Source: a virus
Taxonomy: Duplodnaviria > Caudoviricetes
IMG/VR virus record: IMGVR_UViG_3300017778_001537
Coordinates: 1 to 50,201 of that record
DNA length: 50,201 nucleotides
Strand: one strand, 5' to 3'
Part shown: piece after piece, positions 3,186 to 50,201 of the stretch
Numbering within the stretch: the stretch's first letter is position 1
Layout of the letters: each line of letters starts with the position of its first letter
Translations under genes and position numbers: made by a program
The notes under the pieces: generated by a model
The model's input: only the letters and a program-made list of their open reading frames with translations
What the model was told of the DNA's origin: nothing
Database searches by the model: none

Positions 3186-3238
3186 TGTGGCCGTATACGG
3201 ACGAAGAGCTTGACTTCATTAACGGAAAACGGAAATAG
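3185..3238 (+). CDS. putative 17-aa micro-protein MWPYTDEELDFINGKRK
   Basis: TAATG coupling to the previous ORF, terminator immediately after. Confidence 0.5.
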   Translation: MWPYTDEELDFINGKRK

Positions 3239-3240
3239 GT

Positions 3241-3268
3241 AAGGGCGCTTTGGCGCCCTTTTACTTTT
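3241..3268 (+). terminator. intrinsic terminator
   Basis: AAGGGCGC-TTTG-GCGCCCTT followed by T-rich tract. Confidence 0.75.
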
Positions 3269-3277
3269 GGAGAATAA

Positions 3278-4078: not shown

Positions 4079-4091
4079 TGTATGATAAGCA

Positions 4092-7591: not shown

Positions 7592-7594
7592 AAG

Positions 7595-8718: not shown

Positions 8719-9137
8719 AAGTCGGTTTAACAGCGTCTACGTTTGATTTACTACATGCAGGTCACATTGCGATGCTTCGAGAAGCTAAGACGCAATGTGA
8801 CTACTTAATTTGTGCATTGCAAGTCGATCCGTCAATTGACCGTCAAAACAAGAATAAACCAATCCAAACAATTGTGGAACGATACACACAGCTTTCAGCA
8901 GTGAAGTATGTTGATGAGATTGTTGTCTACGCACACGAGAGAGACTTGGAAGACATCTTGTCTCTATACCCAATCGATGTACGTATCCTCGGAGAGGAAT
9001 ACAAAGACAAGGATTTTACAGGACGAGAGATCTGTAAACGCAAAAACATTCAATTGTATTTTAACAAACGAGATCACCGCTTCTCTTCTAGTGATCTTAG
9101 ACAAAGAGTATTTGATATGGAGAATGATAAGACGTGA
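8715..9137 (+). CDS. TagD-like cytidylyltransferase
   Basis: FDLLHAGH (HxGH) and RDHRFSSSDLR motifs. Confidence 0.88.
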   Translation: MKVGLTASTFDLLHAGHIAMLREAKTQCDYLICALQVDPSIDRQNKNKPIQTIVERYTQLSAVKYVDEIVVYAHERDLEDILSLYPIDVRILGEEYKDKDFTGREICKRKNIQLYFNKRDHRFSSSDLRQRVFDMENDKT

Positions 9138-10991: not shown

Positions 10992-11274
10992 GACCCCTGC
11001 TACAGAAAACTGGAAACAGAACGTAGACTATGAACTGATTCCTGGTGAGAACAATCACTGGAAGGTTCGAATCCTTAAAGGCGACCTTATTGAAACTGTG
11101 TTTTATTATGGAAATGTTAACTTTACAGGTGACGACATGATAATTCAGTTTGAGTTTACGCTTGACTATTCACCCGATCCTGAGCTACAATCAGAAGATC
11201 CCCAACTACAATCAGCAGCTAGTGGTATTCTTCACAGTCTTTTAATTGGAATGATAGATGACAATAAACCTTGA
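10984..11274 (+). CDS. gp40-like protein (head vertex assembly chaperone position)
   Basis: synteny uvsX-40-41; sequence support weak. Confidence 0.5.
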   Translation: MTKTPATENWKQNVDYELIPGENNHWKVRILKGDLIETVFYYGNVNFTGDDMIIQFEFTLDYSPDPELQSEDPQLQSAASGILHSLLIGMIDDNKP

Positions 11275-12634
11275 GCAGACCATCCTTCGTAATATCCTGA
11301 CCAATGATCAGTATATGAGAAAGGTTCTGCCATTCGTGCGCCCCGAGTATTTCTCGGGGACGTATAAAGAGATGTTTAAAGAGATCGGGCGGTTTGTTGG
11401 CAAGTACAACAAGCTGCCTACACTCGAATCGTTTAAGATCGAGCTAGATGGTAATGAGCGTATTAATCAAGGCGACTATGCTCATGCGCTTGAGATCCTT
11501 CCAAACATCTTCTCAACTGAACAAATTAATCAACAATGGCTATTAGACGCTACAGAGAAGTGGTGTCAGGATGCGGCGGTACACAATGCAATTATGGAAT
11601 CAATTCAAATTATTGATGGCAAGCACAAAGAGCTTACTAAGAACGCTCTCCCTGATATTCTCCAAAAGGCGCTTGCAGTCTCTTTCGACACAAATATCGG
11701 GCACGACTATATTGAAAACGTTGAACAGCGATATGACTTCTACCATGAACAGGAATCTCGCATTCCGTTTGATCTTGATTACTTCAACAAGATTACAAAG
11801 GGAGGTCTACCTAACAAGACTCTTAACATTGTGCTTGCTGGCACTGGGGTTGGTAAATCTCTGTTTATGTGTCACTGTGCTGCTAATGCTCTGATTCAAG
11901 GTCGCAATGTTCTGTACATCACTATGGAGATGGCAGAAGAGCGTATTGCGGAACGTATCGACGCTAACTTGCTGAACATTCCTCTTGATCAGCTTGAGTA
12001 TCTGCCTAAGCCGATTATGATGACTAAGGTCAACGATATTGCCAACAAGACTAACGGCAAGCTGATCATTAAAGAGTATCCTACTGGTCAAGCTAACTGC
12101 AGCCACTTCCGTGCGCTTCTGAACGAGTTGAAGTTGAAGAAGAGCTTTGTTCCAGAGATTATCTTCATCGACTATCTAAACATCTGTGCAAGTGCTCGTA
12201 TGAAAGGTATGGGAGGGTCGATTAACTCTTATACGTACATTAAAGCAATTGCAGAGGAGATGCGCGGTCTTGCAGTCGAATTCAATCTTCCGATCATGTC
12301 TGCAACGCAGACGACACGTTCTGGTTTTGGTAGCTCGGATCCTGGGCTTGAAGATACATCTGAGTCTTTTGGACTACCCGCTACAGCAGACTTAATGTTT
12401 GCACTTATCTCAAACGACGAGCTCGCTCAACAGGGTCATATCCTTGTTAAGCAATTGAAGAATCGCTACAACGATCCAAACCTGTACAAGCGATTCGTAA
12501 TTAAGGTTGACCGTTCACGTATGAAGCTGGAAGATGCTCCTGATGCAGAAGAGAACCTCGTCCAAGATGGACCTATAATCGACAAAGGTCATACTGCTCA
12601 AGTAACTGACAGATTCAAAGAAATCACATTTTAA
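11258..12634 (+). CDS. gp41: DnaB-like replicative helicase (T4 gp41)
   Basis: AGTGVGKS, TMEMAEE, IFIDYL, SATQTTR, KQLKNRY. Confidence 0.97.
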   Translation: MTINLEQTILRNILTNDQYMRKVLPFVRPEYFSGTYKEMFKEIGRFVGKYNKLPTLESFKIELDGNERINQGDYAHALEILPNIFSTEQINQQWLLDATEKWCQDAAVHNAIMESIQIIDGKHKELTKNALPDILQKALAVSFDTNIGHDYIENVEQRYDFYHEQESRIPFDLDYFNKITKGGLPNKTLNIVLAGTGVGKSLFMCHCAANALIQGRNVLYITMEMAEERIAERIDANLLNIPLDQLEYLPKPIMMTKVNDIANKTNGKLIIKEYPTGQANCSHFRALLNELKLKKSFVPEIIFIDYLNICASARMKGMGGSINSYTYIKAIAEEMRGLAVEFNLPIMSATQTTRSGFGSSDPGLEDTSESFGLPATADLMFALISNDELAQQGHILVKQLKNRYNDPNLYKRFVIKVDRSRMKLEDAPDAEENLVQDGPIIDKGHTAQVTDRFKEITF

Positions 12635-12647
12635 GGAGAACTATATC

Positions 12648-12923
12648 ATGGCTAACAAATCATCTGGCAAGCACTACACCTCTAAGGGTGAACGTGCGTC
12701 TTCTATCAGCACCAAGAACACCGATCCTGGCCAGCGCTTGCTGAACCAGCTCAAGGCTCTGGAAAAGGGTCGTGATGTTATCATCACTCTTCCTCAGAAG
12801 ACAAAGACCCTCAACAAAAAAGGTGAGCCAATGATCAAGATGGTTAAGACCAAGATCGATGGCAAGGCTTGGGTTAAGAAGCGTCAAGGTGGCGACAAGA
12901 AAGAAAAGGCAGATGCAGAATGA
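12648..12923 (+). CDS. hypothetical basic protein
   Basis: TAAGGAG SD, Lys-rich 91 aa. Confidence 0.75.
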   Translation: MANKSSGKHYTSKGERASSISTKNTDPGQRLLNQLKALEKGRDVIITLPQKTKTLNKKGEPMIKMVKTKIDGKAWVKKRQGGDKKEKADAE

Positions 12924-13591
12924 GAGCTTGGCTTGTTGTACAACCACAACCTGCTCCAGAGTTGCTTGAAGAAGGGTTAGAGAATGCGCTTGACCTTATT
13001 GCCTACTGTGCCCGAGTATCTAACCCAGCTAACGAGTTCAACACAGACACAGGTGAAAGACTCATCAGACGGCTTATCGAGTGGAAGCACTGGAGTCCAC
13101 TCGAAATGTGCTCCGCAACGATTGGAGTCGAAACCACTCGAGACATTGCAAGACAGATACTTAGACACCGATCGTTCAGCTTTCAGGAGTTCAGTCAGCG
13201 ATATGCCAATCCTACCGCTCTTGATGATTCCTTTGTTTTAAGAGAAGCTCGCCTACAGGATCCTAAGAATCGTCAGAATTCTGTTGAGACGGATGATGAA
13301 GAGTTGCAGCATCAGTGGGACGCTGCACAACAAGCTGTTATTGATATGGCAAGTAAAGCATATAAGTGGGCAATTGCTAATGGTATTGCAAAAGAGCAAG
13401 CTCGAGCGGTGCTTCCAGAAGGCAACACAATTTCTAAACTTTACATGAACGGCACTCTTCGCTCGTGGATTCACTATATCGAGCTACGTTCTGGTAATGG
13501 AACACAAAAGGAACACATGGAAGTTGCTAGAGCAATTGCTGCAGCTATCTCGGCAATCTTCCCAATGGCAGGAGAATACGTTCATGGGTAA
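12920..13591 (+). CDS. thyX: flavin-dependent thymidylate synthase
   Basis: RHRSFSFQEFSQRY ThyX motif, HWSPLE. Confidence 0.97.
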   Translation: MRAWLVVQPQPAPELLEEGLENALDLIAYCARVSNPANEFNTDTGERLIRRLIEWKHWSPLEMCSATIGVETTRDIARQILRHRSFSFQEFSQRYANPTALDDSFVLREARLQDPKNRQNSVETDDEELQHQWDAAQQAVIDMASKAYKWAIANGIAKEQARAVLPEGNTISKLYMNGTLRSWIHYIELRSGNGTQKEHMEVARAIAAAISAIFPMAGEYVHG

Positions 13592-13796
13592 GAAAATTTC
13601 TACATATTATCCCAATGTAGGCAAGGGTTGGGCTGAAATCCATATTGACGCCAAGGAAGAATTGTTGTATATTAAGTACTTCAATGAGGGAGGAGCATCC
13701 TTCTTCACTGAGGAATTTCCCAATAAGTCTATGCAGTATGTTCAAGATGCTGCGGAGAATTGGGCATTGGGTATTAAGAAATTGGAGATTAAATAA
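13584..13796 (+). CDS. hypothetical protein
   Basis: GGAG SD, coupled to both neighbours. Confidence 0.7.
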   Translation: MGKKISTYYPNVGKGWAEIHIDAKEELLYIKYFNEGGASFFTEEFPNKSMQYVQDAAENWALGIKKLEIK

Positions 13797-14251
13797 TGGC
13801 ATACTATTCAACTAAGACGTACGGACATAACATTGGGTTGAGCGCGTGCTTCCGTCAGCCTCACGCTGATCATTCACATTGTCGGTTCCTACATGGATAC
13901 AGCTTGCAGTTCAAATTTACGTTTGGGTGCGATGAGCTGGACAACAAGAATTGGGTTGTTGACTTTGGTGGCTTGAAGCCTCTCAAGGCGTGGCTAGAAG
14001 AGACGTTCGACCACAAGGTTGTGTTGGATGCAAAAGATCCTCATATCGACGACTTTAAGATCCTTGAGAGCAAAGGTCTTGCACAGCTAACCATTCTTGA
14101 TGGTGTTGGTGTTGAGAAGTTTGCTTTCCACGCATACAAATATGCTAATGAGCTTGTTAGTCTAATGACTGGTGGACGTTGCTGGGTTGAGAGTGTAGAA
14201 TGTGCAGAGCATGGTGCTAACTCTGCAATCTATGAAGGAAATGATCAGTGA
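13796..14251 (+). CDS. queD: 6-carboxy-5,6,7,8-tetrahydropterin synthase
   Basis: C...HGY, VVDFG.LK, FDH motifs (T-fold). Confidence 0.9.
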   Translation: MAYYSTKTYGHNIGLSACFRQPHADHSHCRFLHGYSLQFKFTFGCDELDNKNWVVDFGGLKPLKAWLEETFDHKVVLDAKDPHIDDFKILESKGLAQLTILDGVGVEKFAFHAYKYANELVSLMTGGRCWVESVECAEHGANSAIYEGNDQ

Positions 14252-15189
14252 GTGATAAAGAATACGTTTACAGCGAGATCTTCTATAGCATTCAGGGGGA
14301 AGGACACTATACTGGTGTCCCAACCGCTTGGATCCGATTCTATCTGTGCAATCTACAATGTGATGGATTTGGTCAGAAGCATCCGACTAAGCCTGAGACT
14401 TATGAGCTACCATATGAAGACTTTGATGCTCACTCAGTAACTCGTGTTGAGGATCTTCCAGTATGGTCTAAAGGATGTGATAGCTCGTATACGTGGTCGA
14501 AGAAGTTTCGTCACTTGATGGCTAAGGAGAGTGGTGCTGTGATTGCTCAGAAGGTAATCGACAGCATGAAGAACGAATACAATCCAGAGGGTTGGTTCCG
14601 TCATCCTAAGAGTAAGCAACATCAGCACTTCTGTATTACTGGTGGTGAGCCTCTGATGCCTCATGCACAGCAAGGTTTCATTGATATCTACAGAGCTATG
14701 CGTGATATGCCTGGTGGACCTATTCCAGAGACAAAGTTCAATGCATCGTCGAACCTTCCTGCATCTGTTACATGGGAAACCAATGGCACTCAGAAGCTAA
14801 CTCAACAGTTCAAAGATCTTGTTGGATCGCCTCTGTTTATGCCAGAAGCATTCTTCTCTGTCTCACCTAAGCTGTGGACTGTTGCTGGTGAGAAGCGTGA
14901 GAAGGCTATCCGTCCCGATGTTGTTGCTGAATACTATCAGCTATCCAACGAAGGTCAATTGAAGTTTGTTGTTGGACAGACTCAACAAGAGTGGGATGAG
15001 CTTGATGAAGTGATCGAGCTGTTCCGTGATGCTGGTGTTGATTATCCTGTTTGGGTGATGCCAACCGGTGCCAGAGAAGAAGAACAGCAAGCAACTGCTG
15101 GCGATGTGGCTCGTATGGCTTTCCAGCGTGGATACAATGTCTCTGGACGTATGCACGTCTATCTGTTTGGCAATGCAATCGGAACGTAA
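14248..15189 (+). CDS. queE: 7-carboxy-7-deazaguanine synthase (radical SAM)
   Basis: EIFYSIQGEG, CNLQC...CDS, ITGGEP, ETNGT, SVSPK. Confidence 0.93.
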   Translation: MSDKEYVYSEIFYSIQGEGHYTGVPTAWIRFYLCNLQCDGFGQKHPTKPETYELPYEDFDAHSVTRVEDLPVWSKGCDSSYTWSKKFRHLMAKESGAVIAQKVIDSMKNEYNPEGWFRHPKSKQHQHFCITGGEPLMPHAQQGFIDIYRAMRDMPGGPIPETKFNASSNLPASVTWETNGTQKLTQQFKDLVGSPLFMPEAFFSVSPKLWTVAGEKREKAIRPDVVAEYYQLSNEGQLKFVVGQTQQEWDELDEVIELFRDAGVDYPVWVMPTGAREEEQQATAGDVARMAFQRGYNVSGRMHVYLFGNAIGT

Positions 15190-15191
15190 CA

Positions 15192-15500
15192 ATGACACCG
15201 GAGCTTAGAGAACGGCTTCATAAACACGTGCAGGAGGCGGCCAAACAGTGTGAGGGCCGCCTTCCCGCCCATCCCAGCCATCCATACGGTAGGATTCCAG
15301 TTGCACACATCTACGATGTTATCCAAGGAATAATGGAAAAGCCTGCACGTGAGTGTAGAGATTCCCGCTATGACGAAATCCTTGAGATTGTTAAGTTTTG
15401 TGTTGACCATGCTGAGGATATGTCTATAATTAGGCAAATCAAACATTTGTATGAACCTGAGCCAAAGGTTCAACCATCATCTCTAGAAGATTTTATGTAA
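15192..15500 (+). CDS. hypothetical protein with C-terminal SLEDFM (clamp-binding-like) tail
   Basis: ORF between queE and folE; tail resembles gp43 SLEEFF. Confidence 0.7.
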   Translation: MTPELRERLHKHVQEAAKQCEGRLPAHPSHPYGRIPVAHIYDVIQGIMEKPARECRDSRYDEILEIVKFCVDHAEDMSIIRQIKHLYEPEPKVQPSSLEDFM

Positions 15501-15510
15501 AGGATATGTA

Positions 15511-16203
15511 ATGGCTATTTCTGAAATTATCAAAGGTCGCTTGAAGAACAACAATGTTCGCTACTGGGCTAATGACAACATCTCTAGCTTCATCAACGAT
15601 GGTGAGCATGGTATGCTTATCGATGAGCTTACTGAGAAGTTTGAAGGTGTTCTTGATTCGTTGCTGATCGATCGTGAGACCGATCCTAACTCCCATGGGA
15701 CCGCTCGTCGTCTCGCTAAGATGTATATCAATGAGACGTTATCAGGGCGATACACTCAACCTCCGGCGGTTACAGCGTTCCCTAATGATGACGCTGATAC
15801 ACGATACGGCGGGATGATTGTTGTACGTTCTGAGATCCTTTCTATGTGTTCTCACCACCACCAGCCTGTTAAAGGTGTTGCATACATTGGGTTGGTTCCT
15901 AGTGTTAAGGTGATTGGTCTGTCGAAGTACACCCGTATTGCACAGCACTGTGCTCGTCGTGGGACGTTGCAAGAAGAGCTGACTCAGGACATCTGTAATG
16001 AGATTTGCAAGGCTACTGGTTCTAAGGATGTTGCTGTCTACATTCAAGCTACTCACGGCTGCTGTGAGAATCGTGGAATCATGGCACATAGCTCGTTGAC
16101 TCAGACTTGTGAGCTTCGTGGCCAGTTCTTCAACCCATCTGTCAAGAATGAGTTCTTGGACTACATTAAGATGCAGCAACAATTTGCTGGCAATCGAACT
16201 TAA
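15511..16203 (+). CDS. folE: GTP cyclohydrolase I
   Basis: SMCSHH, GLSK, LQEELT, HGCCENRG. Confidence 0.96.
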   Translation: MAISEIIKGRLKNNNVRYWANDNISSFINDGEHGMLIDELTEKFEGVLDSLLIDRETDPNSHGTARRLAKMYINETLSGRYTQPPAVTAFPNDDADTRYGGMIVVRSEILSMCSHHHQPVKGVAYIGLVPSVKVIGLSKYTRIAQHCARRGTLQEELTQDICNEICKATGSKDVAVYIQATHGCCENRGIMAHSSLTQTCELRGQFFNPSVKNEFLDYIKMQQQFAGNRT

Positions 16204-16261
16204 CTGTTGACTTATCATATCTGTTGCTGTAGGGTTAATTCCTACAGCAAAGGGATGCATC

Positions 16262-16726
16262 ATGGAAAAGATTACCTACACCAAAGCTCACCGTGAAGTT
16301 ATTGAAGCAATCAACAAGGATAAGTGGCACCAATCCCGTATCGATGTCAACTATCCCTCAGAAGATACCCTTTCTAAAATCAACGATGTCTTTGTATCTC
16401 GCAAAACTTTTAAAAAGTGGGACATTAATAACATTGTCCGTGTCAGCGTAAAACCTAATAAAAAGTATAAAGTTAAAAGCAGCTTTGCCACTTGTTTTGA
16501 GCTTATCAAAATCGAAGAAGGTAAAGTTCTCGCAACAGGTTTTGTCGGTGGAACATACCAACGCGATTTCTGGATCGATCGTGAAGATATCAAAGATATC
16601 TGGTTGCTAGATAAAGATGCTGACAAACTTCTTTCTACACTTAAAAATGTAAAAGTTCGTGATCATATGTCTGACATCCTTGTTAAATCAGGACATTCGA
16701 AGATTTCATATGAACCACAAGAATAA
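16262..16726 (+). CDS. hypothetical protein
   Basis: 154 aa ORF after a TTGACT promoter at 16207. Confidence 0.7.
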   Translation: MEKITYTKAHREVIEAINKDKWHQSRIDVNYPSEDTLSKINDVFVSRKTFKKWDINNIVRVSVKPNKKYKVKSSFATCFELIKIEEGKVLATGFVGGTYQRDFWIDREDIKDIWLLDKDADKLLSTLKNVKVRDHMSDILVKSGHSKISYEPQE

Positions 16727-34653: not shown

Positions 34654-35889
34654 ATGGTTGAGTACGTAGTTAAACGGGACGGGTCGAGAGAGCCGTTTGC
34701 CCGAGAGAAAATTGTTGTCGCTGTCGAGAAGGCGATGAAATCTATCAAGATCTCTAGTAAGAGTCTTCCCAAGGAAATTGCAGACGAGGCAGTCAAGCGT
34801 CTCGAAGGTGAAGAAGTTGCAGAAGTGAACAACATTCACAAGACTGTTGAAAATGTTATTATGGATATGGGTATTCACAATCTGGCGCGTGAGTACATCG
34901 TCTATCGCGCAAAGAACATGCCAGACATCTTCCGTAAGCGTCAGAACCTCAAGCCATATGAATATCCACAGTTGATTGAGTATCTCGAAGCTATCCGTCA
35001 CTCGTACTGGATTCATACCGAGTTCAACTACTCTGGTGACATCCAAGACATGAAAGTCCGACTGACACCAGAAGAAGCAGATATTGTTAAGCGTGCAATG
35101 CTTGCTATCTCTCAGATCGAAGTTCAGGTAAAGACATTCTGGACCAAGATTGGTGATAGAATGCCAAAGCCAGAAGTGCAAGCTGTTGGTGTAACATTTG
35201 GTGAGTCTGAAGTTCGTCATGCTGATGCATACTCTAATTTGATTGAGATGCTTGGCTTGAACAAGGACTTTGAAAATCTTGTTGAAGTTCCAGCAATCAA
35301 GAAGCGTATGGCTTATCTCGAGCAGGCTATGGTAACTCCTATCGAGAATAAAGACTACTTCCACAACATCATCCTGTTCTCAATGTTTGTAGAGAACGTC
35401 TCGTTGTTCTCACAATTCCTAATTATGATGGCGTTCAATAAGCACCGCAACGTGCTCAAGGGTATCTCAAACGCTGTTGAAGCTACTTCCAAAGAAGAAG
35501 ATGTTCACGCTCGCTTTGGTTTCGAGCTTGTTAACATTATTAAAGCAGAAAACCCATCGTGGTGGGACAAAGAAACTATCCAAGCAATCAACTCACTTGC
35601 TAAGGATGCCTTCAAGGCTGAATCTGCAATTGTTGATTGGATCTATGGCAACACCGATCTTGACTTCTTGCCTAAGGACACCGTCAAGGAGTTCCTCAAG
35701 CATCGGTTTAACCAGTCGCTTAATGCTATTGATTTGAAGAGTATCTACGAGGTTGATCCAAAGGCAATCGTTGACACAGAATGGTTTATAGATGAGACTT
35801 TGAGCACAAAGAACGTTGACTTCTTCGTTAAGAGAAGCACAGCATATTCCAAAAAGACTAAATCATTCACAGAAGACGATCTATTTTAA
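34654..35889 (+). CDS. nrdB: ribonucleotide reductase beta subunit with N-terminal ATP-cone (NrdBi / class Id-like)
   Basis: VVKRDG ATP-cone; QIEVQVKTFW, ESEVRHADAY, VENVSLFSQF, EEDVH. Confidence 0.95.
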   Translation: MVEYVVKRDGSREPFAREKIVVAVEKAMKSIKISSKSLPKEIADEAVKRLEGEEVAEVNNIHKTVENVIMDMGIHNLAREYIVYRAKNMPDIFRKRQNLKPYEYPQLIEYLEAIRHSYWIHTEFNYSGDIQDMKVRLTPEEADIVKRAMLAISQIEVQVKTFWTKIGDRMPKPEVQAVGVTFGESEVRHADAYSNLIEMLGLNKDFENLVEVPAIKKRMAYLEQAMVTPIENKDYFHNIILFSMFVENVSLFSQFLIMMAFNKHRNVLKGISNAVEATSKEEDVHARFGFELVNIIKAENPSWWDKETIQAINSLAKDAFKAESAIVDWIYGNTDLDFLPKDTVKEFLKHRFNQSLNAIDLKSIYEVDPKAIVDTEWFIDETLSTKNVDFFVKRSTAYSKKTKSFTEDDLF

Positions 35890-35899
35890 GGAGAAACGA

Positions 35900-37552
35900 A
35901 TGGCATTTGATTGGCTTAATGATCAATCACGCGCATTCCTCTCACGTGGCTATTTGTTAGAAGGACAGACAGCCGAGCAACGTGTAAGGATTATTGCGGA
36001 CACAGCAGAGAAGCATCTTGGTATCAAGGGCTTTGCTGATAAGTTCTACGACTATATGGGGCGAGGGTTCTATTCCCTCGCTTCACCAATTTGGTCTAAC
36101 TATGGCACTGACAGAGGACTTCCTGTCTCTTGCTTTGGATCGTACATTGACGATCATATGGAGTCTATCCTTCATGGCACCGCTGAAAACGGTATGCTAA
36201 TGAAAACTGGGGGTGGCACATCAGGTTACTTTGGTGCCGTGCGTCCTAGAGGTGCTCCTATTCGCAATAACGGTGAATCTTCTGGTTCAGTACACTTCAT
36301 GGAGCTGTTTGATAAGCTAGCTTCCGTGATCTCGCAAGGCAATGTTCGTCGTGGATTCTTTTCTCCTTACCTACCAATCGATCATAAAGATGCTGATGAG
36401 TTTCTCGATGTTGGCACAGAAGGTCACCCTATCCAAGGTCTAACAACTGGTGTTACTGTATCTGATGCGTTCTTGGAGCGCATGAAGGCAGGTGAGCCTG
36501 AGGCTCGTCGTTTGTGGGCTAAGGTTCTACAGAGACGTTCTGAGGTTGGCTATCCATACATCTTCTTCTCTGACAATGTAAACAAAGGTAAGCCAGACGT
36601 CTACAAAGATCATATGATGACAATCTGGGCATCTAATATGTGTACAGAGATTGCATTACCATCGTCAGTAGATGAGACATTTACTTGCGTGTTATCTTCG
36701 TTGAATCTGGTTATGTGGGAAGAGATTGAAAAGACAGACGCTGTCGAAGCTCTAATCATGTTCCTTGACACAGTTGTTACTGAGTTTGTTCAGAAGACAG
36801 AGGGCATGAAGTACTTTGAACGTGCTCGTCGTTTTGCTGAACGTCACCGTGCTCTTGGAGCTGGTGTGCTTGGTTGGCATTCGTTCTTGCAGTCGAAGAT
36901 GATTGCATTTGAGTCTGCAGAAGCCGCTAAGTTGAACCTTCATATTGCCAAGACTATTCGCGCACGTGCTGATATAGCATCTGTTGCATTGGCTGCTAAG
37001 TTTGGTGAGCCTGAGCTGTTAAAGGGATACAGTCGTCGTAACACAACTCTTCTTGCTATTGCACCAACCAAGTCCAGCAGCTTTATACTTGGTCAGGTTT
37101 CTCAGTCGATCGAGCCAGAGTTCTCTAACTGCTATGTTAAGGATCTTGCAAAGGCAAAGGTAACTATCAAGAACCCATACTTGACTAAGTTGCTACAAGA
37201 GAAGGGTCAAGACACTCACGAGGTGTGGGACTCAATCAAGAACATGGACGGATCTGTTCAGCATTTGAACATCTTGACTCAAGAAGAAAAAGATGTGTTT
37301 AAGACGTTTGCAGAGATTGATCCTGAGGCAATTATCACTCAGGCAAGCGTCCGTCAAACATATATAGATCAGGCGCAAAGTATCAACCTCATGCTTGATC
37401 CCGACACGCCTGTAAAGGAAATTAATGCTCTTTATTTGCTTGCGTGGAAAATGGGTATCAAGAGTCTGTATTACAGCTTCTCAATGTCCAAAGCCCAATC
37501 ACTAACACGTAAGCGAGTAATGAGCCAAAGTTGTGCTGCGTGCGAGGGATAA
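35900..37552 (+). CDS. nrdA: ribonucleotide reductase alpha subunit lacking ATP-cone
   Basis: PVSCF, GGGTS, SNMCTEI, AIAPT, KSLYY, C-terminal CAACEG. Confidence 0.96.
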   Translation: MAFDWLNDQSRAFLSRGYLLEGQTAEQRVRIIADTAEKHLGIKGFADKFYDYMGRGFYSLASPIWSNYGTDRGLPVSCFGSYIDDHMESILHGTAENGMLMKTGGGTSGYFGAVRPRGAPIRNNGESSGSVHFMELFDKLASVISQGNVRRGFFSPYLPIDHKDADEFLDVGTEGHPIQGLTTGVTVSDAFLERMKAGEPEARRLWAKVLQRRSEVGYPYIFFSDNVNKGKPDVYKDHMMTIWASNMCTEIALPSSVDETFTCVLSSLNLVMWEEIEKTDAVEALIMFLDTVVTEFVQKTEGMKYFERARRFAERHRALGAGVLGWHSFLQSKMIAFESAEAAKLNLHIAKTIRARADIASVALAAKFGEPELLKGYSRRNTTLLAIAPTKSSSFILGQVSQSIEPEFSNCYVKDLAKAKVTIKNPYLTKLLQEKGQDTHEVWDSIKNMDGSVQHLNILTQEEKDVFKTFAEIDPEAIITQASVRQTYIDQAQSINLMLDPDTPVKEINALYLLAWKMGIKSLYYSFSMSKAQSLTRKRVMSQSCAACEG

Positions 37553-37693
37553 ATGGAAGAAGAATACTACGGTATATGTGATAATTGCGACGTTGAAACA
37601 CAGGTTATGGTAGTTAATGAAGAAGAAGTTCCACTATACTGTCCAATGTGTGGATGTGGAGTGGAATTTGAAGCATTGAACGATAAAAAATAA
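37553..37693 (+). CDS. small zinc-ribbon protein (46 aa)
   Basis: CDNC...CPMC; not in ORF track because of length. Confidence 0.75.
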   Translation: MEEEYYGICDNCDVETQVMVVNEEEVPLYCPMCGCGVEFEALNDKK

Positions 37694-37700
37694 AGCAACT

Positions 37701-37734
37701 AAATAGCCTTGTGGAAACATGAGGCTATTTTTTT
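37701..37734 (+). terminator. hairpin + T run (terminator; also covers the denA SD)
   Basis: AAATAGCCTTGTG-GAAA-CATGAGGCTATTT + TTTT. Confidence 0.7.
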
Positions 37735-38151
37735 ATGTGGTATTACGAAGGCAAACAATATACAGAAACTCCAGAGGACTATCAGGGGTTTGTATATGAA
37801 ATCCTCGAACATGATACTGGTAAGCGTTACATTGGTAAGAAGTTCTTTTGGAAGCCAAAGATTCTCCCTGTAACTAAAACACGCAAGCGCCGTATAAGAA
37901 CTCGAGCAGAGTCTGACTGGCGAGACTACTACGGATCTTCTGCAGAGGTGAAATTCCTTGTAGAACAGAAGGGTGTTGACAATTACACTAGAACAGTGCT
38001 AAAATTGTGCAAGACAAAAGGTGAATGCTCTTACTATGAAGCCAAGCTACAGTTTGAAAAAGATGTGCTGCTTCGCGACGACTACTACAATGAGTTCATC
38101 GGCTGTAAGATCCACTCAAAGCACCTAAGGAAAGATAATGATTCTGATTGA
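37735..38151 (+). CDS. denA: GIY-YIG endonuclease II (DenA-like)
   Basis: GFVY....YIGKK, W..YYGS, E...., YYN; adjacent to nrd genes. Confidence 0.75.
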   Translation: MWYYEGKQYTETPEDYQGFVYEILEHDTGKRYIGKKFFWKPKILPVTKTRKRRIRTRAESDWRDYYGSSAEVKFLVEQKGVDNYTRTVLKLCKTKGECSYYEAKLQFEKDVLLRDDYYNEFIGCKIHSKHLRKDNDSD

Positions 38152-44426: not shown

Positions 44427-45004
44427 GTAGAAAAATCTTTGTTAACCTAGGTGCAGGTAGTGGATCTGACATCGAAGGCTTTATTAATTTGAGTCTAGAC
44501 AACAAGCAGTTTGAAATTTTTGCATTTGAATGTAACCCAAACCTAATTGCTAACTTAAAGACAACATATCCATCAGTTAACGTAATGGAGTTTGCTGCAT
44601 TTGACGTTGGTGGACCAGCTAAGCTATACTTTGGCGATCTTTACATTAATAGTTCGCTTCATGTTGAAAAATGCAATGTTTATGCTGACAAGTATGTAAA
44701 CGTACAAACCATTGATATTACTAAATGGCTGCTTGATAACTTTACAAAAAATGATTACATCATATTAACCATGGATATTGAAGGTGCTGAGTTTGAAGTG
44801 CTCGAGCGTATGTTCCAGTTGAATGCTTTCAATATAATTGATGAATTCTATGTCGAGTTTCATGGTAGAAAGATTAGTGAAAACGCTAAACTTTTAGAAA
44901 AAAAGTGGGTGAGCTATCTGATAGATAAGTTTAAAGATCAGGTGTACATCTACGAACATCACCACCACAAACAATTTATGAAATTGAATAGAGATCCAAC
45001 ATAA
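44423..45004 (+). CDS. FkbM-family methyltransferase
   Basis: NLGAG, AFECNP, MDIEGAE, VEFH. Confidence 0.85.
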   Translation: MSRKIFVNLGAGSGSDIEGFINLSLDNKQFEIFAFECNPNLIANLKTTYPSVNVMEFAAFDVGGPAKLYFGDLYINSSLHVEKCNVYADKYVNVQTIDITKWLLDNFTKNDYIILTMDIEGAEFEVLERMFQLNAFNIIDEFYVEFHGRKISENAKLLEKKWVSYLIDKFKDQVYIYEHHHHKQFMKLNRDPT

Positions 45005-45696
45005 TGAAAGCAGTATCAATTGTTATCGATAAAAACGAAGTTTCAGAGCTTGGGTATTCTAGGCTTGTAGAGTCATCTAAAGCTGTTGGTAACGATTTTG
45101 ATATTCAAAGATGGAATGCCATTACACCCAGCAACGTTAGTGAGTTTATGACAGGTGCTGGGATTACGTGGAGCTATCCTTGGGAAGGTGAAGTTGTTGA
45201 CTTTGCAACAGGGTTAGTAAAGACATCATACAAAACAGCTAACCCTAAAGCTAGAATTGCCTGCGCTTGTAGTCACTATTGTTTGTGGCACGAAAGCGCT
45301 ACAACCAACACAGCATTGTTGATCCTTGAGCACGATGCTTACTTTGTCAACAAGATTGACTTTGATCCAGCAGACGTTAAAGCTGACATTATTGGAATCA
45401 ACAACCCGCTTGGCGCGACTCGTAAGTCACAGTTGTTCTACGACAAAGTTCTACAGTCAACAATTAACTATCCGCTAACTCCAATGATTGACAACATCTA
45501 CATTCCTCAAGGGCTCGCTGGAAACTCTGCCTACATAATTAAACCTGCTGGAGCTAAGCAGATGCTTGAACTGGTTAAGCAATATGGCCTGTGGCCCAAC
45601 GATGCTATTATGTGTCGGCAACTTGTCCCAAAACTCAGTGTCAGCCGCAAATTCTATACTAACGTCCAAGGACTAAAGAGTACAACATCATTATGA
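45004..45696 (+). CDS. glycosyltransferase family 25-like
   Basis: AC..SH..LW, LILEHDA, G..AYII.P.GA. Confidence 0.85.
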   Translation: MKAVSIVIDKNEVSELGYSRLVESSKAVGNDFDIQRWNAITPSNVSEFMTGAGITWSYPWEGEVVDFATGLVKTSYKTANPKARIACACSHYCLWHESATTNTALLILEHDAYFVNKIDFDPADVKADIIGINNPLGATRKSQLFYDKVLQSTINYPLTPMIDNIYIPQGLAGNSAYIIKPAGAKQMLELVKQYGLWPNDAIMCRQLVPKLSVSRKFYTNVQGLKSTTSL

Positions 45697-46337
45697 AATC
45701 ATTTGTAATTACAATGCTGGACAAGAAGAAGTCAATCGAGGCTGCTGATCGCTGCATCGACTCTGGTGTCAAGCAAGGGCTGGCAATTCAATACTTTCGA
45801 GCTTTGACTCCAAAGGACCCAATTGATGAGCTGTTGAAAGCCCAAGGGATCTCAAAGGAAGGCTTCCGCGAGAAATATTCACGACTAGATAATTGCATTG
45901 CAGCTTTCTTGTCTCACTATGCTTTGTGGACTCAATGTGCTGCTGGTAAAGAAGAATTCCAAATCTTTGAACATGATGCAATTATTGTAGGACAGATTCC
46001 AGAGTTTATCAACTATCAAGGTTGTATTAGTCTTGGAAAACCTTCATATGGTAAATATAACGATCCTTTACAGATTGGGGTCAATCCATTAACATCGAAG
46101 CGTTACTTTCCTGGTGCACACGCATACAGACTGAAACCACCCACTGCTAAGTTGCTTGTTGCTCAAGCTAAGAAAGCTGCCAAGCCAACTGACGTGTTCT
46201 TACATCTTGATACGTTCCCATGGCTGGAAGAATACTATCCATGGCCTGTTGAAGCTCATGACACATTTTCAACGATTCAGCGGACAGAAGGTTGTCTCGC
46301 TAAACACAATTACAGTGATAAATATGAAATCCTTTGA
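45693..46337 (+). CDS. glycosyltransferase family 25-like
   Basis: SHYALW, IFEHDA, GAHAY. Confidence 0.85.
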   Translation: MKSFVITMLDKKKSIEAADRCIDSGVKQGLAIQYFRALTPKDPIDELLKAQGISKEGFREKYSRLDNCIAAFLSHYALWTQCAAGKEEFQIFEHDAIIVGQIPEFINYQGCISLGKPSYGKYNDPLQIGVNPLTSKRYFPGAHAYRLKPPTAKLLVAQAKKAAKPTDVFLHLDTFPWLEEYYPWPVEAHDTFSTIQRTEGCLAKHNYSDKYEIL

Positions 46338-46974
46338 TACAGTATTCCTAACTGGATGCGATGCTAAGACAGAATGGATGCTTGGTTGGTTCTTGAAGAA
46401 TTTTAACCTCCATAACAAGCTGCCTATTGTGTTTGCAAACTTTGGGGTCAGCGAGCAAGGTTTGAATCAGGCGTCATCTTGTGCTAGCACAATCGATATG
46501 CGTGCTACTGGTGGAACAGGGTGGTTTAAGAAACCACAGGCAATGATTGAAGCGTCAAAGCTCGCCCGCAGGGTTTGCTGGATCGATACAGACTGCCATG
46601 TTCTCGCCGATTTAAGCGGTGTATTCGACTTCGTAGAGCCTAACAAGCTGGCCATGGCAGAGGATGCCCCGTGGTCCAAACGCAGACAAGAAACATGGCA
46701 TAATACGGGCGTAGTAGCGTTTGAAGATCGACCGCCAATTCTCGACCAGTGGTTCAATGCTGTCAAAGCCAACCCCGTTGTAGGTGATCAAGAGATCCTA
46801 CACGAGATTCTGAAAAAGGATCTTAGACGTCAGATATATACCACATCCCTACCACAAGACTATAATTGGCTTCGTCTGATGCTGCAAGATGGTGTGGACA
46901 ACAAAAAGAAAAAGGTAATGCACTGGACAGGTGCTAAAGGCAAACAACACATTAAAGGTATTGTTAATGACTAA
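46324..46974 (+). CDS. glycosyltransferase (GT8/GT77-like)
   Basis: WF.KP, WIDTDC, NTGVV, GDQEIL, HWTG. Confidence 0.8.
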   Translation: MKSFDTVFLTGCDAKTEWMLGWFLKNFNLHNKLPIVFANFGVSEQGLNQASSCASTIDMRATGGTGWFKKPQAMIEASKLARRVCWIDTDCHVLADLSGVFDFVEPNKLAMAEDAPWSKRRQETWHNTGVVAFEDRPPILDQWFNAVKANPVVGDQEILHEILKKDLRRQIYTTSLPQDYNWLRLMLQDGVDNKKKKVMHWTGAKGKQHIKGIVND

Positions 46975-47560
46975 AGTAGCTCACGTTATTGGTAATGGAG
47001 ATAGCGCTGCTCTATATAAGCCATCAAAAGGTTTAAAGATCACTTGCAATCTTCCTCCATTTGCGGTTCCTGATGCGTACACAACTTGTATGGTTGACTT
47101 CAAGATGATGAAAGCTATCAACGATGGTAGCGTTACTGTTCCAGGCGAGTGGGTGCTTGGAGCTCGTCCTAAGAAGTGGATGGAGATGCATCCAGCATAC
47201 TACATGAAGTATGCAAAGCAGATCAAAGAGTTCTATACTGAGCTACCAGCGTATGCAGAGAACTACACAAACTTCAATTGTGGCCACCTTGCAGTCCACT
47301 ACACTGCAAACAAGCTAAAGTGTGATGAAATCCATATGTACGGGTTTGACTCTATGTTTGACTTCAACATGCGCAGCACCAGCGACCTGTTCTTGTTCTC
47401 TGATCGTGACATTAACAACAACATGAGACTGATGAACAACTGGCGGCCGATCTGGGGTCAACTGTTTCAAGAATTTCCTAACACTAAGTTTGTCCTGTAT
47501 CACAAGCACGAGAACCTCAAGTTTCCACCACCTAAGAATGTTGAGATCGTGGTTAGATAA
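46967..47560 (+). CDS. DUF115/Maf- or sialyltransferase-like protein
   Basis: VIGNGDS, CN, G..A......IHMYGFD. Confidence 0.65.
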   Translation: MTKVAHVIGNGDSAALYKPSKGLKITCNLPPFAVPDAYTTCMVDFKMMKAINDGSVTVPGEWVLGARPKKWMEMHPAYYMKYAKQIKEFYTELPAYAENYTNFNCGHLAVHYTANKLKCDEIHMYGFDSMFDFNMRSTSDLFLFSDRDINNNMRLMNNWRPIWGQLFQEFPNTKFVLYHKHENLKFPPPKNVEIVVR

Positions 47561-47624
47561 CAGTTGATCTTTTCAACTTCCCCTGTATAATAAAGATGCA
47601 GTTGTTAGCAGGGGTGCAATATAC

Positions 47625-48056
47625 ATGCGGTATGAAGTGACTGGTGGAGACAAGAGGAAGCAAGATATTGTGCATAAAGCAATGTCCCATGTCATCCATC
47701 TTGTGAAGATTCCCAACAATGTATATGTAGAGATAGATTTCATCAGATCTGGCACACATGGTGTTATACAGGATACGAAGACACGGTTCCTATTGGAGAT
47801 CGTCAACACAGTCAGTCTAGCAGAGATTGCATACACAGTGTTCCATGAGATGAAGCACATTGAGCAGATGACGTCTGGCAAGCTACTACATACCCATGAC
47901 AAAACCCTCTGGATAGGTGAAGATCACACTGATACTGCATACTTAGACTGTCCGTGGGAGGTTGAGGCATATAAATTTGAGCGTAGTGCAGATTTGATGT
48001 TGACTTCCTTTGCACCAACGCTTATATTGGGGACACAGAAGGAGGAACGAGTATGA
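47625..48056 (+). CDS. zincin metallopeptidase-like protein
   Basis: HEMKH..Q, Y...PWE.EA. Confidence 0.8.
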   Translation: MRYEVTGGDKRKQDIVHKAMSHVIHLVKIPNNVYVEIDFIRSGTHGVIQDTKTRFLLEIVNTVSLAEIAYTVFHEMKHIEQMTSGKLLHTHDKTLWIGEDHTDTAYLDCPWEVEAYKFERSADLMLTSFAPTLILGTQKEERV

Positions 48057-48238
48057 ATAAGTACAACGATGCGGTGATGGATGAGCTTTGGAAAATCTAT
48101 GCAAAGCCAGTGCCGACTGATTTTGAACTGGAAATGAAGCAAGAGCTCAATGCTTGGATCAAGAAGCAACCCGCTCATAAGTCGTGGGCTACTCCTGCAA
48201 AATCTGCAGAAGAATTCTGGAATGAAAGGTTAAACTAA
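48053..48238 (+). CDS. hypothetical protein
   Basis: AGGAGG SD; promoter TTGACT-N17-TATATT at 48000. Confidence 0.7.
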   Translation: MNKYNDAVMDELWKIYAKPVPTDFELEMKQELNAWIKKQPAHKSWATPAKSAEEFWNERLN

Positions 48239-48444
48239 TGTCAACAAAACACACAACCCAAACATCATTCCCAATTCTGGGGATTCTTGGTTTGATCTTT
48301 ATTACCCTAAAGCTGACTGGCCATATTACTTGGTCGTGGTGGTGGGTTCTGTCTCCATTTTGGTTGCCGCTGTCAATTGTTTTTGGTATTATAGGACTTG
48401 CTTTTATTATTGCTTTTTTGTGGGAATGGTTCACTAGTAAGTGA
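48238..48444 (+). CDS. small membrane protein
   Basis: LIFITLKLTG.I.WSWWWVLSP.W. Confidence 0.8.
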   Translation: MSTKHTTQTSFPILGILGLIFITLKLTGHITWSWWWVLSPFWLPLSIVFGIIGLAFIIAFLWEWFTSK

Positions 48445-48452
48445 TATAAATA
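48445..48452 (+). promoter_or_regulatory. T4-type late promoter for the first tRNA group
   Basis: TATAAATA ending 7 nt before tRNA-Arg. Confidence 0.8.
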
Positions 48453-48459
48453 ACAGATT

Positions 48460-48536
48460 GCTTCCGTAGCACAACTGGACAGTGCAAGGGATTTCTACTC
48501 CCTAGGTTGAGGGTTCGAGTCCTTCCGGAAGCACCA
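48460..48536 (+). tRNA. tRNA-Arg (TCT)
   Basis: cloverleaf, anticodon loop TTTCTAC, encoded CCA. Confidence 0.95.
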
Positions 48537-48542
48537 AATATC

Positions 48543-48618
48543 GCCCATGTAGGCCAAAGGTAGAGTCAGAGGTCTTAAACACCTTACAGTGTCGGTTCGA
48601 GTCCGACCATGGGCACCA
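48543..48618 (+). tRNA. tRNA-Leu (TAA), short variable loop
   Basis: GCCCATG/CATGGGC acceptor, loop CTTAAAC, CCA. Confidence 0.9.
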
Positions 48619-48642
48619 AACACTACCATTCAGGGGAACGAT

Positions 48643-48780
48643 ATGTCTAGTATAGAATATGCAGAACTCGCCGGCTTGAACATTGCACTTAGTAACCTTC
48701 TGACGAATTTTACAACAGAAGCTGACTTGCAGGTTGCCGATTGGATAAAGAAACGAATTAAACAACTAACAGGTAAATGA
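48643..48780 (+). CDS. hypothetical protein (45 aa)
   Basis: AGGGG SD. Confidence 0.6.
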   Translation: MSSIEYAELAGLNIALSNLLTNFTTEADLQVADWIKKRIKQLTGK

Positions 48781-48953
48781 TGTACTACGTAAAAGAACAC
48801 GGCTTCTATTATGAAAAGAAGCATGGACCTTATGCAACTTTACAAGAAGCTATGGCCAATAAGCCAGTCGATAAGACTGTCGGTCGTGAAGAAGCTGTTG
48901 TAAGATTTACAATTGAGTCATCTGAGGGAACCGTTCAGCAACTCAACGGATAG
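48777..48953 (+). CDS. hypothetical protein (58 aa)
   Basis: ATGA coupling to previous ORF. Confidence 0.6.
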   Translation: MMYYVKEHGFYYEKKHGPYATLQEAMANKPVDKTVGREEAVVRFTIESSEGTVQQLNG

Positions 48954-48954
48954 T

Positions 48955-49045
48955 GGAAGTGAGACTTGGTAGTCAGAGGAGTCTTATAAGCTCTTTGCGC
49001 CAGATTAGCGCCTTTGAGGTGGTTCAAATCCACCCACTTCTACCA
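48955..49045 (+). tRNA. atypical tRNA with TAT anticodon (Ile?)
   Basis: GGAAGTG/CACTTCT-ACCA acceptor, 4-nt D loop, loop CTTATAA, long variable arm, GGTGG-TTCAAAT-CCACC T arm. Confidence 0.8.
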
Positions 49046-49059
49046 TAAAAGAGATACCC

Positions 49060-49143
49060 ATGACCCGACTAGAAATATGCCTTGTTATACTAAACATTAT
49101 CACCAGTGTAGCAATTATTGCAAACACTATTCACCAATGGTAA
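49060..49143 (+). CDS. 27-aa single-TM micro-protein
   Basis: MTRLEICLVILNIITSVAIIANTIHQW; GAG SD. Confidence 0.45.
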   Translation: MTRLEICLVILNIITSVAIIANTIHQW

Positions 49144-49144
49144 T

Positions 49145-49221
49145 GCTCCTGTAGCTCAGTTGGTTAGAGCTGGGCGCTCATAACGCCTAGGTCAGGGGTT
49201 CAAATCCCTTCGGGAGCACCA
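49145..49221 (+). tRNA. tRNA with CAT anticodon (probably Ile2; elongator Met possible)
   Basis: loop CTCATAA; C4-G69 and C5-G68 as in TilS substrates; G1-C72 paired, so not an initiator. Confidence 0.9.
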
Positions 49222-49222
49222 A

Positions 49223-49369
49223 ATGAATTATGATAAGTTTAAACAAGAATTCTGGCAATGGTTTGACTCATTGCCCGTTGACAAAAAAGAAAAGTACTGG
49301 TACTATGGGTACGACATTGCTGAAACCAACTTTGACATTTTAGTGTATTCTAAAAAGTGTAAACAATAA
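49223..49369 (+). CDS. hypothetical protein (48 aa)
   Basis: aromatic-rich ORF between tRNA and dps. Confidence 0.55.
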   Translation: MNYDKFKQEFWQWFDSLPVDKKEKYWYYGYDIAETNFDILVYSKKCKQ

Positions 49370-49379
49370 AGGATATCGT

Positions 49380-49817
49380 ATGGAACCTGTATCAGAAAGA
49401 CTCAAAATTGCTCTTGCTTCTGCATTTTCATTCTACCTCAAGGCCCATTACTTCCATTGGAATGTGACTGGCCCGAGCTTCTCTGAGTACCACAAGTTCT
49501 TTGAGGAAATATACTCAGAGGTGCATGCGTCGATTGATGCTTACGCTGAACACATCCGAGTGCTTGGAGCATATGCGCCTGGCTCTCTAAACAGAATGGC
49601 AGAGTTGACTTCCATTCAAGATATCGATACAATCCCAACTAGCCTAGATATGATTCGCATTCTAGAAGCTGACAATGATGTGTTGATTGCTGAGCTATAC
49701 GCTGCTCGAGAGTATGCTGATGCTGCTGGACAGTACGGTGTTGTAAACTTCCTAGAGGAACGGATTAATGCTCACGAAAAACTTCGCTGGATGTTGAAAA
49801 GTTTTGGTGGAATCTGA
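49380..49817 (+). CDS. dps: Dps family ferritin-like protein
   Basis: HYFHWNVTGPSF..YH.FFEE.Y......D..AE.IR.LG; HEK..WML. Confidence 0.95.
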   Translation: MEPVSERLKIALASAFSFYLKAHYFHWNVTGPSFSEYHKFFEEIYSEVHASIDAYAEHIRVLGAYAPGSLNRMAELTSIQDIDTIPTSLDMIRILEADNDVLIAELYAAREYADAAGQYGVVNFLEERINAHEKLRWMLKSFGGI

Positions 49818-49827
49818 AAAATAACTG

Positions 49828-49857
49828 TTGACTTATTGTAACAAAGTACTATATAAT
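49828..49857 (+). promoter_or_regulatory. sigma70-like promoter of the leader/tRNA operon
   Basis: CTGTTGACT-N18-TATAAT. Confidence 0.75.
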
Positions 49858-49887
49858 AGAAGTACAAACAAAGGAACTCTACTGCAA

Positions 49888-49974
49888 ATGACTTCGCTGC
49901 ATAAACAAAATCAAAACTGGTTTATGACCCCGCTCTGCGGCGAATATATTCGCATGTGTGGAGGCTCTATGTAA
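49888..49974 (+). CDS. putative attenuator leader peptide MTSLHKQNQNWFMTPLCGEYIRMCGGSM
   Basis: AAGGA SD (12-nt spacing); 3' end overlaps the antiterminator arm. Confidence 0.65.
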   Translation: MTSLHKQNQNWFMTPLCGEYIRMCGGSM

Positions 49975-50002
49975 CGTATACCAAAGTATACCTTATCAAA
50001 GA

Positions 50003-50035
50003 GCCCTCCCAGATGAAAATCTCGGAGGGTTTTTT
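50003..50035 (+). terminator. intrinsic terminator (attenuator) upstream of tRNA-Cys
   Basis: GCCCTCC-C-AGAT-GAAA-ATCT-C-GGAGGGT-TTTTT. Confidence 0.85.
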
Positions 50036-50040
50036 AATAC

Positions 50041-50118
50041 GGTGTGGTGCTCGAGTGGCCCAAGGGAATGGATTGCAAATCCATAAAGTCGTGAGTTCGA
50101 ATCTCACCCACACCTCCA
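50041..50118 (+). tRNA. tRNA-Cys (GCA)
   Basis: GGTGTGG/CCACACC, U73, loop TTGCAAA, CCA. Confidence 0.93.
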
Positions 50119-50120
50119 AT

Positions 50121-50195
50121 GTCGGTGTAGCTCAGTGGTAGAGCGGCGGTCTCCAAAACCGCGCGTAGGGGGTTCGATTCCCTCCACCTTCGCCA
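50121..50195 (+). tRNA. tRNA-Trp (CCA)
   Basis: loop CTCCAAA, G73-CCA; two mismatches in the acceptor stem. Confidence 0.88.
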
Positions 50196-50201
50196 ATTTG
50201 G

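Follow-up and report, generated by a model that had tools for sequence, protein, structure and literature searches.

Leader codons track downstream tRNA genes in phages: a very probable ribosome-read transcription attenuator ahead of a viral tRNA block

The question raised by this locus is what governs transcription into a block of phage tRNA genes that is preceded by a promoter, a short upstream open reading frame (uORF) and a terminator. The window, i.e. the whole stretch of DNA analysed, is a 50,201-base virus record with T4-like replication genes (DNA polymerase, clamp loader, UvsX, DnaB-like helicase, ribonucleotide reductase and PhoH), and its DNA polymerase is 56% identical to that of phage C48C1 and ~48% identical to those of T4-like cyanophages. 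Genes for a QueE-like radical SAM protein and a GTP cyclohydrolase at 14248-16203 suggest a 7-deazaguanine pathway. Six tRNA genes lie within the final 1.8 kb, and the features described below are all on the plus strand. The motif TATAAATA, which we take to be T4 late-promoter-like, was found by motif search at 48445..48452, ahead of the upstream tRNA genes (Arg, Leu, Ile-like and Met), and occurs five times on the plus strand of the window and not at all on the minus strand; the copy at 48445..48452 is a possible source of read-in transcripts toward the leader. For a 91-nt tRNA-like gene at 48955-49045, ARAGORN gives Ile(TAT) and Rfam a weak tRNA-Sec match (32 bits, cut-off 47). A tRNA gene search placed tRNA-Cys(GCA), the first gene that would be gated, at 50041..50118 and tRNA-Trp(CCA) at 50121..50195, and alignment with the relative L001 points to the start of a third tRNA gene (CAU anticodon) at 50200..50201, the array presumably continuing past the contig end.

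The promoter, uORF, complementary segments, apical hairpin, terminator and tRNA genes had been located in an initial annotation, and all of these coordinates were correct on re-check. Given a motif scan, the sigma70-type promoter (49828..49857) has a -35 TTGACT, an 18-nt spacer and a -10 TATAAT; with 11/12 matches it is the top of 19 promoter hits in 45000-50201, and its -35 TTGAC is invariant in 11/11 aligned relatives. It begins 11 nt after a Dps/ferritin-like gene (49380..49817; Pfam Ferritin, E 5.5e-20), which also lies ahead of the leader in loci L001-L005 and L018, where the cassette follows it directly and the peptides differ. In a comparison of window 49380-50040 with L001:4001-4660, the leader is 98.6% identical and the adjacent Dps 61%, a contrast that would reflect either recombination just 5' of the promoter or strong constraint. 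An SD-like AAGGA (49871..49875), retained in the relatives' alignment A1, lies 12 nt before the ATG, and this long spacing may mean weak initiation. The uORF (49888..49974) consists of 28 codons, 23 of them different, for 17 amino acids, and a recount agreed with the composition first reported. Its frame is retained in relatives with 3-nt indels, and the peptide matched no Pfam family. As judged by a modelled ribosome footprint, the predicted stall-sensing zone comprises codons 2-20 (49891..49947), with 15 amino acids. Assembled RNA contigs from 4/16 runs included one of 175 nt that spans 49819-49989 with 3 differences; it begins 5' of the predicted start site and, as an assembled contig, shows neither ends, strand nor level. 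High RNA depth over tRNA-Met/Trp accompanies partly fitting, less similar contigs and probably comes from tRNAs of other organisms.

Folding predicts an intrinsic terminator hairpin (50000..50035), with compensatory changes in its upper stem and a U-tract ending at 50035, 5 nt short of tRNA-Cys; this bulged hairpin was missed by a simple terminator scan (0/3 of the scan's hits). It also predicts an antiterminator hairpin (49957..50011), in which a strand at 49957-74 is followed by an apical 6-bp hairpin (49976..49991) and pairing continues through to 50011. The two structures are mutually exclusive by folding, as initially described, but the antiterminator is larger than was stated, being ~22 bp long and holding the stop codon TAA together with the terminator 5' arm. 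On truncated transcripts it is predicted at -26 to -29 kcal/mol; the terminator reaches -22 when the uORF is masked. The inner antiterminator of the window has a z of -4.3 against shuffles. On RNA ending at 50012 with a modelled ribosome, the antiterminator held the terminator 5' arm at 0.59-0.79 (maximum 0.8) with the A-site at codons 2-20, at 0.40 with the A-site at codon 21, and at 0 from codon 22. In the same 50012 snapshot with no ribosome, the antiterminator was ahead, 0.71 to 0.20. Once the RNA is full-length and at equilibrium, a stalled ribosome does not keep the terminator from partly winning, and the switch would therefore have to be kinetic. The folding check that had been suggested bore out formation of the antiterminator on truncated RNA but gave only a partial switch at full-length equilibrium. 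The spacer between SD and ATG (49877..49885) is able to pair with 49952-63 by folding and is at most a possible trp-like 1:2 anti-antiterminator. Shuffles of the spacer gave P ~0.04 and permutation within the close clade P 0.08; in that clade the helix is predicted at -11 to -15 kcal/mol from differing sequences, and it is absent in many distant leaders.

The predicted features very likely form a ribosome-read transcription attenuator ahead of a phage tRNA block, in which the control codons are those of the controlled tRNAs. Transcription by host RNA polymerase would begin at the sigma70-type promoter, for which the motif is evident, and a ribosome would follow on the uORF, as conservation of the frame suggests. 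A ribosome at codon 22 or beyond would cover the 5' strand of the antiterminator, which would let the terminator form and end transcription 5 nt ahead of tRNA-Cys. A stall at codons 2-20, where charged tRNA is wanting, would allow the 22-bp antiterminator to form first, in a kinetic manner, and give read-through into the block. Candidate triggers are anticodon nucleases, starvation or the translation load of the phage itself. As the leader codons match the tRNAs of the block, the arrangement would amount to a negative-feedback loop on tRNA supply.

The layout recurs in other phages. A first DNA pattern was too loose and yielded no leader; a search with the Dps protein supplied 80 loci, and tRNA genes were called in 7 of these at the default threshold. 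The count base, among the matches listed, was 281 distinct terminators with the core of the window, tRNA-adjacent meaning that a tRNA lies within 700 nt. A uORF plus antiterminator accompanied 22 of the 31 tRNA-adjacent terminators, some of which are close relatives found with window-derived patterns, versus 6/250 of the others; two of these six are bacterial rtcB leaders, and three are phage leaders whose tRNAs lie at a greater distance or beyond the locus. Three of the 31 that lack the antiterminator (L298, L312 and L406) were left out of further analysis. Two other terminator cores gave the layout at 18/27 tRNA-adjacent terminators versus 2/222 others, again among the matches listed, and at 16/25 when L051 and L216, seen earlier, are left aside; in L051, the cassette lies inside the tRNA array with an unrelated terminator. 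A BLAST search of cultured phages with the leader gave tRNA matches only, among the 30 of 1667 records listed, and the leaders of L556, L690 and L567 had no match by BLAST. RcXuper 1-16469 has a large tRNA array, and no such unit is present on its plus strand; hence the feature is not universal. The search of tRNA arrays in related phages that had been advised found the uORF, antiterminator and terminator recurring and covarying, but the high codon diversity that was expected with them in only part of the leaders.

Similar cassettes, with a 28-43-codon uORF, an antiterminator and often the same terminator core, occur ahead of rtcB (L389:1002-1238, a Hyphomonas sp. record; L484; L511-L540), with the terminator in 18/30 rtcB loci and the full set in 9/30. 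The rtcB gene of L389 is split into two frames. In the viral loci L370 and L379, a predicted antiterminator/terminator pair precedes a 60-aa ORF, and the short locus includes no tRNA.

Conservation was examined in 31 phage leaders representing 18 lineages with less than 60% peptide identity; five ORF starts were chosen by hand, the discovery set was selected by patterns derived from the window, and the lineages are partly dependent. The gap from stop codon to terminator core is 25-34 nt in 30/31 phage leaders, and the antiterminator strand begins 10-19 nt ahead of the stop in 31/33. The inner antiterminator, the part on which the search made no selection, folds better than shuffles in 18/18 lineages (mean z -2.6, 13 below -2), as compared with 7/60 controls below -2. 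In a 24-row alignment with 58% of cells paired, the antiterminator has 64 two-sided changes; shuffles give 41 and slid registers 26-37, and these counts depend on a poor inner alignment. The terminator has 28 versus 8.5 shuffled, with 96% of cells paired, 4 pairs changed on both sides and covariation in the upper stem. For the close clade, RNAalifold returned the terminator and a small hairpin only, with neither the antiterminator nor the 1:2 helix, and 1/31 pairs showed a two-sided change. Indels are of 3 nt within the ORF and of any length outside it, and uORF substitutions between close pairs are mostly non-synonymous; together with the conserved pairings, these patterns point to conservation of frame and fold without conservation of the peptide. 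The original proposal of a ribosome-mediated attenuator before the tRNA genes is supported by this conservation of layout, stop-to-terminator spacing and pairings in the face of a changing peptide.

Whether the downstream tRNAs match the leader codons had been named as a further check; it was positive across phages and proved decisive. For the 17 lineages in which tRNAs were visible, the stall zone encodes the first 3 different tRNA types downstream in 51/51 cases versus 35.7 permuted (0/20000), the first 4 in 68/68 and the first 8 in 120/131. When the lineages were pooled into 7 coarse groups, 35/35 of the first 5 types matched versus 20.3 permuted (6/20000). The zone includes 146/167 amino acids with a downstream tRNA, versus 88/173 without one, and 9/10 amino acids with an upstream-only tRNA (mostly Leu, Arg and Met). 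With the peptide taken as given, the synonymous codon chosen is one that a downstream tRNA of the same phage decodes in 56/73 cases, against an expectation of 41 (P 2e-4 under simple wobble rules). L351, with no tRNA in a short locus, was left out. Since this test on the discovery set came after the tRNA lists had been inspected, the rule was fixed in advance for the new terminator cores. The pre-set cut-off removed 9/27 rows, and in the 9 lineages of this validation the first 3 types gave 21/23 versus 17.2 permuted (P 0.03) and 15.6 shuffled (P 0.007), and the codons 46/70 versus 38 (P 0.02). A looser cut-off, set afterwards, gave 30/32 versus 21.2 in 13 lineages. The composition of the leaders thus tracks the downstream tRNAs across phages.

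The cultured Cellulophaga phage phi38:1 (KC821614, L784) carries three attenuator-like units at 35283-38130. Unit 1 (uORF 35283-35360, terminator near 35390) precedes a Lys-Ile-Gly-Met-Asp-Thr-Val-Arg block to which 13/15 residues are cognate, a score reached by 144/20000 shuffles. For unit 2 (uORF 36744-36833, terminator near 36884) and its Tyr-Ser-Asn-Trp-Phe-Cys block the match is 15/19 (2/20000 shuffles), and for unit 3 (uORF 37987-38076, terminator near 38104) and its Pro-Glu-Gln-His-Leu-Arg block it is 10/13 (21/20000). Only 0-4 residues of each zone are cognate to the other blocks. A repeated motif common to all three units lies upstream and is probably a promoter. Of the three uORFs, the first alone overlaps an annotated gene (gp066), and several tRNAs called by ARAGORN are without annotation in the record. 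Units of this type are found also in phi40:1 and Calle_1-3.

As the window contig stops after tRNA-Trp, its own block was deduced from L001, where Cys and Trp are followed by Met, Gln, Pro, Lys, Asn, Phe, Ile, a Tyr-like gene that ARAGORN did not call, Glu, Val, Thr, Arg, His, Gly and Leu. The leader of the window encodes 16/17 amino acids of this block, with Val missing and Ser extra, and with Ile and Arg at the border codons 21-22. Ala and Asp are absent from both the leader and the L001 block, and in four longer relatives (G001-G004) they sit in a second block at which no attenuator was detected. In G004, the 13 amino acids of the zone are exactly the 13 of the first block (13/13 and 0/7; P 1e-5). 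The match is individually weak in 4/5 arrays of the clade of the window (Fisher P 0.06-0.5), where the block is too broad for significance, and the leader of the window is broad because its block is broad.

How far an attenuator could gate such a block is limited by the promoters within it. In relatives, 0-4 tRNAs precede a second sigma70-type promoter, which is often accompanied by a boxA-like motif and by complementary stems in repeated copies; these in our view resemble antitermination and processing signals of rRNA operons; in L001:4902-5130 and L506-L509, internal promoters are followed by a boxA-like motif and the stems CTGGAAACAG / CTGTTTTC. Strict gating would therefore be limited to the first few tRNAs, and the original claim that the tRNAs are transcribed only when a ribosome stalls is too strong: it can apply to Cys, Trp and the next tRNA alone. 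The first block of G001-G003 yielded no internal terminator, and the one in G004 is at the block end only. A match that spans the whole block fits read-through that adds to basal transcription. Internal promoters would give basal expression, with the attenuator gating the first 1-4 tRNAs and adding to the rest, and it is likely that the attenuator acts as a booster of the tRNAs for slow-read codons and not as an on/off gate. In L218 and L018, no tRNA lies between the leader and the next promoter. Two other kinds of element were seen in the arrays. tRNA genes with UCA or CUA anticodons (L506:4906, L507:16921, L508:12968 and L509:18277; the UCA one in a gated block) are possible stop-codon suppressors, and the ORFs inserted at L002:4784-5464 and L018:4994-5419 presumably encode homing endonucleases (GIY-YIG-like and HNH-like).

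The breadth of the leader had been taken to indicate a general sensor of tRNA depletion. For the whole uORF, however, the probability of at least 17 amino acids is 0.10 when the window's genes serve as reference and 0.14 with shuffles, and that of at least 23 codons is 0.16 and 0.59, respectively; whole-uORF diversity is at chance level and is set aside as evidence. Codons 2-20 are mildly rich, with 15 amino acids in 19 codons (P ~0.03). Among lineages the richness of the zone is bimodal, with z of at least 2 in 8/18, including that of the window, and below 2 in 10/18, where it is ordinary or low, and a general sensor argued from codon diversity is accordingly not sustained. On the view of a general translation-stress sensor, breadth itself is selected, any stall, antibiotic or ribosome damage opening the array in the manner of whiB7 or PA5471.1, with the tRNA match a by-product. 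The rich lineages, three leaders that contain all 20 amino acids, the Ser codon in the window's leader with no tRNA-Ser in the first block of L001, and the cassettes ahead of bacterial rtcB would suit it, but narrow leaders fit narrow blocks, as in the three units of phi38:1 and in L617, where a Ser-rich leader of 6 amino acids lies ahead of Arg-Ser-Ser-Ser, and the Ala and Asp missing from the window's leader belong to the attenuator-less second block. Cys, Met, Trp and Glu are over-represented in the leaders and Asp and Leu under-represented. As the leaders diverge, retention of richness is marginal, with P 0.049 for random sites and P 0.96 for the same sites as null. Selection for breadth is thus improbable, and since any such leader would also answer global stalls, general sensing would hold as a side effect.

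It is less probable still that the codon match is real and the output is not termination, with the leader instead tuning how the precursor is processed, its stability or the access of Rho, or with read-through disturbing a downstream promoter. The terminator is favoured at full-length equilibrium, and at most ~40 nt separate the terminator from the following promoter in L018 and L218, as such a model would allow; against it, a U-tract terminator and a competing hairpin are conserved at fixed spacing to the stop codon, and the units of phi38:1 are identical in layout. The least probable reading is a plain terminator of a small peptide or sRNA gene or of the dps transcript, with the tRNAs expressed from internal promoters and the antiterminator incidental. 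The second promoter with its boxA-like motif and the near-identity of the leader beside a divergent Dps in L001 are compatible with this, but it leaves the antiterminator enrichment, covariation and codon matching unexplained, the 5 nt before tRNA-Cys are too short for a promoter, and the peptide changes of close pairs are mostly non-synonymous. A codon-matched attenuator is compatible with more than one purpose. The same switch could act as a homeostat for the translation load of the phage, host starvation or phage-driven breakdown of host tRNAs, and not against nucleases, for which we judge the chances to be slightly short of even. The leaders span nearly whole tRNA sets and not the few tRNAs cut by single nucleases, PARIS for instance targeting tRNA-Lys in the part of that study available (PMC11464382), and in several relatives the late-type motif TATAAATA overlaps the -10 box, all of which would favour a homeostat. 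In the other direction, cleavage of a tRNA would stall ribosomes at the matching leader codon, and the available part of the same work reports that a phage tRNA, the tRNA-Lys of T5, rescues infection by neutralising the tRNA-cutting defence PARIS, the purpose first suggested for the window, with no regulation of the phage tRNA described there (PMC11464382). An anti-defence purpose of the switch is about evenly balanced.

The mechanism itself would be that of classical attenuation, and trpL, hisL, thrL, ilvL and pheM-pheST are multivalent leader-peptide attenuators of enterobacteria. As in trp, his and thr attenuators, the locus has a promoter, a short ORF with an SD (12-nt spacing) and an intrinsic terminator before the first gene that would be gated; folding and conservation point to an exclusive antiterminator with a ribosome-covered 5' strand; and control codons are cognate to the product of the gated genes, a correspondence that is weak for the clade of the window alone. 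Like those of trpL, hisL, thrL, ilvL and pheM-pheST, the uORF carries control codons that relate to the gated product, with an antiterminator over its 3' end and an intrinsic terminator. In contrast to them, the phage leaders would gate tRNAs and not biosynthetic enzymes or a synthetase, carry up to 17-20 codon types, mostly once each and without runs, and can, several together, partition one array, as in phi38:1. Neither tandem runs of one or two codons, downstream biosynthetic genes nor an Rfam match, as expected of amino-acid-operon leaders, were found here, the His_leader match of Rfam being sub-threshold (19.3 bits, cut-off 49). No T-box was among the 15 Rfam matches to E 10 in 47500-50201. 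Nor is the composition independent of the downstream genes, as in general stall sensors of the whiB7 or PA5471.1 type. The most fitting description is very probably attenuation of the multivalent thr/ilv type, here gating tRNA genes and listing their codons.

As far as the available portions of the respective papers describe them, several systems share parts of this arrangement. In the mycobacterial whiB7 uORF, which is likewise broad in composition and in which a stall favours the antiterminator, single Trp or His codons set which starvation gives read-through; it differs in gating a transcription factor, in its longer, Ala-enriched uORF, in having no match to adjacent tRNAs and in being cellular (PMC10274678). 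At PA5471.1-armZ of Pseudomonas aeruginosa, full translation leads to a 3:4 terminator and a stall opens it, and lost tRNA CCA repair induces via the Gln3/Phe4 codons, so that tRNA defects are sensed by single codons; this leader controls an efflux-pump anti-repressor and not tRNA genes, and its codons are unmatched to the downstream genes (PMC13041342). PA5471 is not mentioned in PMC8297930. The Anabaena trn operon, a back-up array of 26 tRNA genes induced by translational stress, differs in using a protein repressor, TrcR, at initiation, with no translated leader and no codon specificity (PMC10272220), and PMC5335546 deals with the tRNA genes of hosts alone. A leader-peptide attenuator of tRNA genes was not found in a literature search that covered mainly open-access titles and the openings of abstracts.

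The role of tRNA arrays in phages has long been in question, the proposed answers being codon bias or the replacement of destroyed host tRNAs. Sensor codons that match the gated tRNAs would make the tRNA genes a demand-driven back-up, and a matched sensor predicts which stress induces which tRNA block. There is an even chance that phage tRNA arrays are widely self-regulating, a block-specific parts list of codons inducing whichever tRNAs are scarce as a codon-specific counter to tRNA-cutting defences. The three units of phi38:1 on Cellulophaga baltica offer a cultured test system, and such leaders could serve as natural codon-specific reporters of tRNA damage. Leader-peptide attenuation would reach the tRNA genes themselves, as a closed loop on the decoding machinery, and the leader, if this is true, would be a record of the tRNAs that a phage monitors.
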